Below, one piece after another: positions 1 to 785 of a DNA stretch of 17,396 nucleotides. The DNA comes from Armatimonadota bacterium. Lineage in GTDB: Bacteria; Armatimonadota; Zipacnadia; Zipacnadales; UBA5352. The notes beneath the pieces were generated by a model. The model was not told where the DNA came from. It saw nothing but the letters and a program-made list of their open reading frames with translations, and did no database searches. The position numbers and the translations under genes are program-made. The DNA is taken from NCBI GenBank assembly GCA_034722055.1, contig JAYENL010000321.1, positions 1 through 17,396 on the forward strand, given 5' to 3'. Each line of letters opens with the position of its first letter. Position 1 is the stretch's first letter.

Positions 1-666
1 GTCCTCATCCCTGTCCTCGTCGGCAGCGGCCTCGCCCTCGGCCTCTTCCTCCTCGGGCTCCTCCTCGCCGAGCAGCGCCTCTTCGAACTCGACCTCCTCC
101 TCTTCTTCAGCGGCCTCTTCCTCCTCGGCCTTCGCCTCCTCCTCGTAGGGATCTACGATCTCGCGACCGAGAAGCTCCTCGACGCTCTTCTCACGCCGGG
201 CTGCGACCTCGTTGGGGTCGTACAGGTCCTGCAGAGCCTTGAAGCAGGCCATAGCGCGGTTGAAGACGTTCCCGCTGCCCAGTGACTTGGTCAGGATATC
301 GCGGATGCCGCTGACCTCCACGATCTGCCGCACGGCGCCGCCGGCGATGATCCCCGTGCCTCGCGAGGCGGGCTTGAGCAGGATCACGGCACCGCCGACC
401 TTGGCCTTGACGGTGTGCGGGATGGTGTAACCGTCGAGGGGCACCCGAATCATATTCTGGCGCGCGAACTTCATTCCCTTCTCAATCGCGGAGGGCACGT
501 CGCGGGCCTTGCCGACGCCCACGCCGACGTTCCCGCGGCCGTCGCCCACCGCACAGACGACACGCGCGCTGGAGATCCGGCCACCCTTCACCGTCTTGCG
601 CGTGCGGTCAACGCGGACTACTCGCTCCTCGAGTTCCTCTGCGGTACCGAAAGCCGTTCTTGCCAT
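1..666 (-). CDS. rpsE: 30S ribosomal protein S5 (uS5) with long acidic C-terminal extension; 3' end runs off the window
   Basis: Manual translation from ATG at 666: MARTAFGTAEELEERVVRVDRTRKTVKGGRISSARVVCAVGDGRGNVGVGVGKARDVPSAIEKG...LLKPASRGTGIIAGGAVRQIVEVSGIRDILTKSLGSGN...EVAARREKSVEELLG. The S5 signatures KxVKGGR, VGDG, GKARxVP and PAxxGTGIIAGG are present. There is no stop in 222 codons. SD-like GAAAGGGA lies upstream. Confidence 0.97.
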   Translation of the reverse strand, partial: MARTAFGTAEELEERVVRVDRTRKTVKGGRISSARVVCAVGDGRGNVGVGVGKARDVPSAIEKGMKFARQNMIRVPLDGYTIPHTVKAKVGGAVILLKPASRGTGIIAGGAVRQIVEVSGIRDILTKSLGSGNVFNRAMACFKALQDLYDPNEVAARREKSVEELLGREIVDPYEEEAKAEEEEAAEEEEEVEFEEALLGEEEPEEEEAEGEAAADEDRDED

Positions 667-756
667 CTCTGCGGCTATCCCTTTCCGTACGGCTGATTCA
701 TGCCGGCGACGGATGAACTATCGCGCCCCCGAGCGGAATCCGGGGGCTGGACCCGG

Positions 757-785
757 ACTGTACCATGAATCCCCGGCACTGTCAA
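757..785 (-). promoter_or_regulatory. sigma70-type promoter for rpsE
   Basis: Minus strand: consensus TTGACA (785-780), 17-nt spacer, TACAGT (762-757) preceded by TGn (extended -10). Confidence 0.75.

Follow-up and report, generated by a model that had tools for sequence, protein, structure and literature searches.

Few bacterial gene orders are as stable as rplR-rpsE-rpmD, and the window, which is the whole 17,396-nt stretch of Armatimonadota DNA analyzed here, begins with an rpsE gene standing outside that order. The question raised by this locus is what kind of S5 gene it is and how it came to stand alone. An earlier note had proposed either a second, alternative S5 that could generate specialized 30S subunits or a break of the spc operon exactly at rpsE. 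Its observation that rplR is absent 5' of the gene is borne out by the window sequence. The gene occupies positions 1 to 666 on the reverse strand, with 222 of its 248 codons inside the window, and is preceded by a purine-rich, Shine-Dalgarno-like site of the GAAGGGA type (678 to 685, reverse strand; 11 nt 5' of the ATG) that also precedes the rpsE start in same-family relatives. The open reading frame from 666 to 1 scores 185.9 bits against TIGR01021 (cut-off 164.05), and the product contains a complete N-terminal PF00333 domain and a complete C-terminal PF03719 domain; by these profile matches, the protein is a true bacterial uS5.

As had also been noted, the gene has no stop in the window, which is the entire contig C321; the frame is open at the contig end. 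Its continuation lies on contig C257, whose 202-bp overlap with the window end contains one mismatch and which supplies the stop codon (C257:281-283), giving a protein of 248 aa with an acidic C-terminal tail. In place of rpmD, C257 has a GC hairpin and a convergent oxidoreductase-like gene beyond the stop. The join of the two contigs is supported by the occurrence of the same oxidoreductase-like gene 3' of rpsE in 11 of 14 same-family genomes.

The genome (6.1 Mb, 92.7% complete) contains a single S5 gene according to both tblastn and HMM searches, neither of which returned a second copy; as the sole copy, its product is presumably incorporated into 30S subunits. The main ribosomal-protein cluster, spanning rpsL to rpsI, lies on contig C211, where the order is rpsH-rplF-rplR-rpmD-rplO-secY and the gap between rplR and rpmD measures 13 bp. 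Thus, in this genome rpsE is missing from between rplR and rpmD while the spc operon is otherwise intact, and rpmD-rplO-secY remained with rplR and are absent 3' of rpsE. The proposed break exactly at rpsE is therefore wrong. The earlier note had also considered a single rpsE followed directly by rpmD-rplO-secY: the copy count is indeed one, but an oxidoreductase-like gene takes the downstream place. This is a third case outside the two options offered, namely the removal of rpsE alone from an intact operon, fixed throughout a class.

The class-wide scope of the arrangement, in a class of uncultured bacteria, emerged from comparison with related genomes. Among named genomes, the closest relatives carry the Armatimonadota labels Zipacnadia, WS1 or Armatimonadia, and the name Zipacnadia has been proposed for GTDB class UBA5377 (PMC10290634); we infer that the class searched is UBA5377/Zipacnadia. 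Among 79 class genomes, all of them draft assemblies, 73 gave one S5 match, six gave none and none gave two. The rplR gene was found in 75 of the 79, and wherever both genes were present (70 of 70 genomes) they lay on different contigs, including in G334, an assembly of only seven contigs. At the 75 rplR loci, the next gene is rpmD in 62 and rplO without an rpmD match in 12, and one locus is cut by a contig end; accordingly, no S5 follows rplR in 74 of 75, and the largest gap between rplR and rplO is 492 bp. Outside the class, a sample of 68 genomes covering the families of the other classes in a 301-genome phylum sample showed rplR and rpsE adjacent in 67. The class-wide absence of rpsE after rplR, together with this adjacency in the other classes, maps the relocation to the class ancestor.

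These counts bear directly on the idea of a second, conditionally expressed S5 paralogue serving specialized 30S subunits. Such a gene could be expected to show the promoter of its own, the divergent mRNA-channel residues and the long acidic tail that are found here; however, there is one copy in this genome, no class genome has two, and 74 of 75 loci have no S5 in the operon slot, leaving the paralogue reading with a negligible probability and refuting the first option of the earlier note. A simple break between rplR and rpsE does occur in the phylum, in G177 of another class, the sole exception among the outgroup genomes, where rpsE-rpmD-rplO-secY are kept together away from rplR. Here, by contrast, rpmD follows rplR after 13 bp and does not follow rpsE. 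A misassembly at about 670 to 900, raised earlier as an alternative, is excluded by the same-genus genome G037, which is colinear over window positions 13 to 1892 at 83% identity. Neither a break nor an assembly error retains any appreciable likelihood.

The G177 arrangement is a true split of the spc operon (L204, L205), with rplR at the end of one contig and rpsE-rpmD-rplO-secY on another, and its rpsE is preceded by non-coding DNA with a promoter-like stretch. It is a different event from the class relocation. Separately, family f7 shows no rpmD (L30) match between rplR and rplO in 12 genomes (L037-L039, L041-L044, L050, L056, L058, L060 and L064), with gaps of 19 to 135 bp in 11 of them, and L30 may also have been lost or moved in this family.

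Given this distribution, we consider, with a probability of about 0.9, that the gene is the ordinary, sole uS5 gene and that a single relocation in the class ancestor took it out of the spc operon. The route would resemble that of rpmJ, for which a duplicate was deleted, leaving one copy (PMC8046335). A second rpsE copy would have arisen elsewhere by duplication or transfer and gained a promoter, and the operon copy would then have been cleanly deleted, joining rplR to rpmD. Since then, rpsE would have formed a self-contained cassette, predicted to be monocistronic, consisting of the promoter, a short leader with a hairpin, the S5 reading frame and a hairpin past the stop. Genes flanking rpsE vary from family to family across the class, which suggests that the cassette travels as a unit. 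At its 3' end, a stem of at least 9 bp follows the rpsE stop in 61 of 72 class loci, and 30 of the 72 have a T run; the 3' hairpin of the source genome has no U-tract.

Whether the relocated gene was native or acquired is a separate matter. The class S5 proteins form one clade (SH-aLRT 93-95 in quick trees) in which most families are recovered, fitting descent from one relocated gene. Horizontal transfer of a stand-alone rpsE to the ancestor of the class, with Chloroflexota as one conceivable donor and with displacement of the native operon copy, would account for several features: in quick trees, class S5 lies apart from the S5 of other Armatimonadota and joins a group with two named Chloroflexota proteins (support 78), or, in an alternative quick tree, joins Clostridia and E. 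coli at 83; the best source-named matches outside the class are from Chloroflexota and Clostridia; and Arg at E. coli position 34, present in all 73 class S5 proteins and in 4 of 44 other Armatimonadota rows, is common among the best non-class matches. However, the outgroup proteins were chosen as best matches to a class member, so identity is skewed in their favor, and the AU test does not reject a tree in which the S5 of all Armatimonadota group together (p-AU 0.51). Similar behavior is seen for L6, a control that resides in the operon, with its best named matches in Actinomycetota, the phylum not recovered and a p-AU of 0.41. Moreover, the Trp at position 33 of S5 in G334 resembles 32 of the 44 other Armatimonadota rows. 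AU tests thus reject neither a native nor a transferred origin, and we regard transfer as improbable. A phage origin of rpsE was also considered and set aside; the phage collection gave 14 records below 60% identity and nothing close.

The dedicated TTGACA-17-TG-n-TACAGT promoter described in the earlier note is present as a candidate sigma-70-type site at 785 to 757 on the reverse strand, with the -35 element TTGACA at 785-780, a 17-nt spacer containing TG and the -10 element TACAGT at 762-757. Three promoter-like sites were detected in window positions 1-2000, compared with 0.1 +/- 0.3 in shuffles. Across the class, 65 of the 73 rpsE loci have TTGAC[ACT] with an extended -10 in their upstream region; of the remainder, three lack only the TG, four (family f8) have a weaker -35 and one is cut. 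This strict pattern occurs only 56 times in the 6.1-Mb genome and stands before genes such as tRNAs and rpsB (gene names assigned by eye), which places the rpsE promoter in the housekeeping class. A strong housekeeping promoter of this kind would supply S5 at ribosome-scale levels.

The divergently transcribed neighbor reported previously is also present, as an open reading frame of 322 aa on the forward strand (906 to 1874) with hydrophobic stretches, a predicted coiled coil and an acidic tail, and it has no Pfam or NCBIfam match. It is preceded by a divergent promoter-like site, TTGACC-17-TATAAT (827 to 855, forward strand), outside the conserved rpsE unit. The frame adjoins rpsE in only one of the 72 other rpsE loci, that of the same-genus G037, and is thus an incidental neighbor. 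Elsewhere in the window, dnaE (NCBIfam) runs straight into a histidine biosynthesis cluster (4633-13671), in which dnaE is followed by hisD (NCBIfam) and, on inspection by eye, by hisB, hisH, hisA, hisF, a phosphoribosyltransferase-like gene and hisI.

Between promoter and gene, the leader contains a 5'-proximal RNA hairpin (725 to 747, reverse strand) with an 8-bp stem and a 7-nt loop, beginning 9 nt past the -10 box and lying at about +3 to +25 of the predicted transcript. A stem of at least 7 contiguous base pairs is found just past the predicted -10 in 62 of 72 class leaders, compared with 21% of shuffled leaders. The hairpin is weak or absent (below 7 bp) in the other 10 loci, mostly from outlying lineages, including G334, G244, G150, G116 and G283. 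Within the source genome, stems of at least 7 bp occur at nine of the 56 strong promoters, that of rpsE counted, and a pattern scan of 1281 hairpins of the same sequence type found the combination of promoter and hairpin to be unique to rpsE. The arm sequence (GCCTCC/GGAGGC type) is kept across families despite very different leader lengths. The whole leader of the source genome is not unusually stable relative to shuffles (z = -1.5).

Covariation was assessed on a MAFFT alignment of 66 of the 72 leaders, with six leaders from outlying families that have no clear stem of this type left out. In the 6-bp hairpin core, 88% of cells are paired and two-sided changes are seen at five of the six pairs; the score of the core was reached by none of 500 shuffles, and slid pairings were 45-64% paired, although these counts derive from related genomes and several misaligned MAFFT rows, and apply, with no phylogeny-aware test, to a structure derived from the same sequences. 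The covariation is accordingly support for the hairpin, not proof. A scan of window positions 600-950 against Rfam gave two chance-level matches only, and a covariance model of the hairpin, which holds too little information, did not recover the rpsE leader itself in a genome search. In families f5 (genera g20 and g21) and f6, the rpsE leaders exceed the others in length by about 100-240 nt, the extra sequence lying past the conserved hairpin (L017, L098, L024, L015, L009, L096, L013, L012, L023, L032, L030, L007, L014, L008 and L010); this sequence may hold further structure.

Off the spc transcript, S5 would require control of its own level, and adjustment of S5 output is the most likely role of the hairpin, which could shield the 5' end of the mRNA or offer a binding site for surplus S5. 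Within the relocation reading, we lean slightly towards the former, in which a 5'-terminal stabilizing stem-loop, or a pause site or weak attenuator, would raise or buffer the mRNA level with no protein partner. Stem-loops at mRNA 5' ends protect bacterial mRNAs, and this one would start approximately 2-5 nt past the predicted +1. Its freedom in loop length and sequence fits such a role, while the T runs directly after the leader stems of G237 and G308 are terminator-like and agree with the attenuator variant. However, pairing alone would suffice for stabilization, yet the arm sequence is conserved, and most other strong promoters of the genome have no such stem.

The second possibility, an autoregulatory leader in which free S5 binds the hairpin and represses its own production, through a block on initiation or by promoting early termination, appears doubtful. 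Its position in the predicted 5' UTR of a solitary ribosomal-protein gene would suit such control, as would its rpsE-specificity in the genome, its covariation and its conserved arms. A T is also enriched 8 nt past the stem (48 of 62 loci). In the source family, the 3' arm matches the genome's 16S rRNA in a stretch that we take to be the helix-28 region. S5 contacts h28 (PMC4509935), and where a single ribosomal-protein gene is regulated, the encoded protein is the likely ligand (PMC7247131). Against S5 binding, the match is just 7 nt long, GC-rich and confined to one family, with no counterpart kept in others; the single, simple stem has no conserved bulges or loop and no invariant column; and the predicted folds of the leaders contain no consistent switch hiding the Shine-Dalgarno site, just as Rfam offers no match.

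The relocated protein itself has changed in some positions and been kept in others. R20, G104 and R112 (E. coli numbering) are retained in all 73 class S5 proteins, with I or V at position 60, whereas Phe31 and Phe33 are both absent from the S5 of the source genome. Position 31 is mostly Ser in the class (Phe in E. coli), and the aromatic at position 33, present in 44 of 44 other Armatimonadota rows, is lost in 66 of 73 class proteins. The seven that retain it belong to f8, f9, f52 and G334, and its retention there indicates that the loss postdates the relocation. In E. coli, Arg20, Phe31 and Phe33 of S5 sit in the mRNA channel, touching the mRNA and the SmpB tail, and uS5 Phe33 and Arg20 stack on SmpB Trp147 (PMC8363625). 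Co-evolution of S5 with SmpB was examined and rejected: inspection by eye found no Trp at the matching tail position in either the class or other Armatimonadota, SmpB being present in 28 of 30 class genomes and 30 of 30 others. A more speculative scenario, which we offer tentatively, is that a new S5-binding leader arose after rpsE left spc and that the mRNA entry channel was later reshaped as Phe33 disappeared from most of the class. If true, S5 would gain its first leader, and the evolution of feedback control that restores ribosomal-protein stoichiometry could be dated.

The last 76 residues of the source S5 are 54% Asp/Glu, and the class tail is longer and more acidic than that of other classes (median 51 versus 35.5 residues; net acidic 12 versus 2). 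The S3 of this genome has a similar acidic tail, so the S5 tail probably characterizes the lineage and is independent of the relocation. Long, Glu/Ala-rich, acidic extensions were observed in S3 (358 aa; C211:8775-9851), at the N terminus of S11 (C211:20487-20987) and in two uncharacterized window proteins (906-1874 and 3604-4572), which suggests that such extensions are a proteome-wide lineage trait.

Other arrangements were noted in the cluster that rpsE left. Where S10 meets spc, rpsQ and rplN are separated by a second EF-G-like gene that shares 38% identity with fusA (C211:10833-12902 in this genome, equivalent to L004:5834-7903). This gene was present in all 14 class loci fetched and in two of six other Armatimonadota (G074 and G132), being absent from G099, G167, G108 and G082, and it may mark a larger clade inside the phylum. 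In addition, rpsJ comes immediately after fusA, without an intervening tuf, in this genome (C211:5144-5193), in two same-family genomes and in G074 (L225, L226 and L239).

A class that has been without rplR-rpsE-rpmD since its origin constitutes a natural experiment on why the cluster is kept elsewhere and what replaces co-transcription. The relocation can also serve as a clean marker of the class at the level of gene order, and it sounds a caution for methods that assume S5 to lie on one contig with the other ribosomal-protein genes. The leader offers a short candidate, amenable to testing, for control by S5, which is the ligand of none of the 35 listed and 20 new r-leaders (55) in PMC7247131. 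No description of a stand-alone rpsE was found in the literature searched, in which subscription journals were thinly covered, and the main text of PMC10290634 mentions neither rpsE nor operons.

Comparison with known systems places these features in context. The rpsE of E. coli K-12, in rplR-rpsE-rpmD of spc, is alike in its two domains, its single copy, R20, G104 and R112, and I or V at position 60; it differs from the class gene, which stands apart from the operon behind a promoter and leader of its own and whose product mostly has Ser for Phe31 and has mostly lost the aromatic at position 33. For the rarity of the arrangement beyond Armatimonadota, E. coli and the taxa of PMC8046335 were the points of comparison, together with general background. 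Zinc-dependent C+/C- ribosomal-protein paralogue pairs involve two copies per genome, whereas the class has one rpsE at most; rpsE here is not a specialized-ribosome system. Ribosomal-protein leaders, especially the uncertain S15-Flavobacteria motif (PMC7247131), share with this locus a promoter, a covarying hairpin and a lone ribosomal-protein gene, and the rpsE hairpin likewise shows a consistent 5' UTR position past a predicted promoter and a covariation-supported structure. It differs from them in having no Rfam match or convincing rRNA mimicry, and is a candidate leader. Finally, single-gene departures from the str-S10-spc-alpha cluster are documented for rpmJ, rpsN, secY and rpsD (PMC8046335), in which, as here, one essential gene exits an intact cluster and persists elsewhere. 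The main text of that study, whose scope is Gammaproteobacteria and Bacilli, does not mention rpsE; its rpmJ and rpsN cases involve two isoforms, whereas rpsE has no second form and its departure spans a whole class. Thus, the class-wide relocation of rpsE appears to be new, while the departure of a single gene from the cluster is an already known kind of rearrangement.
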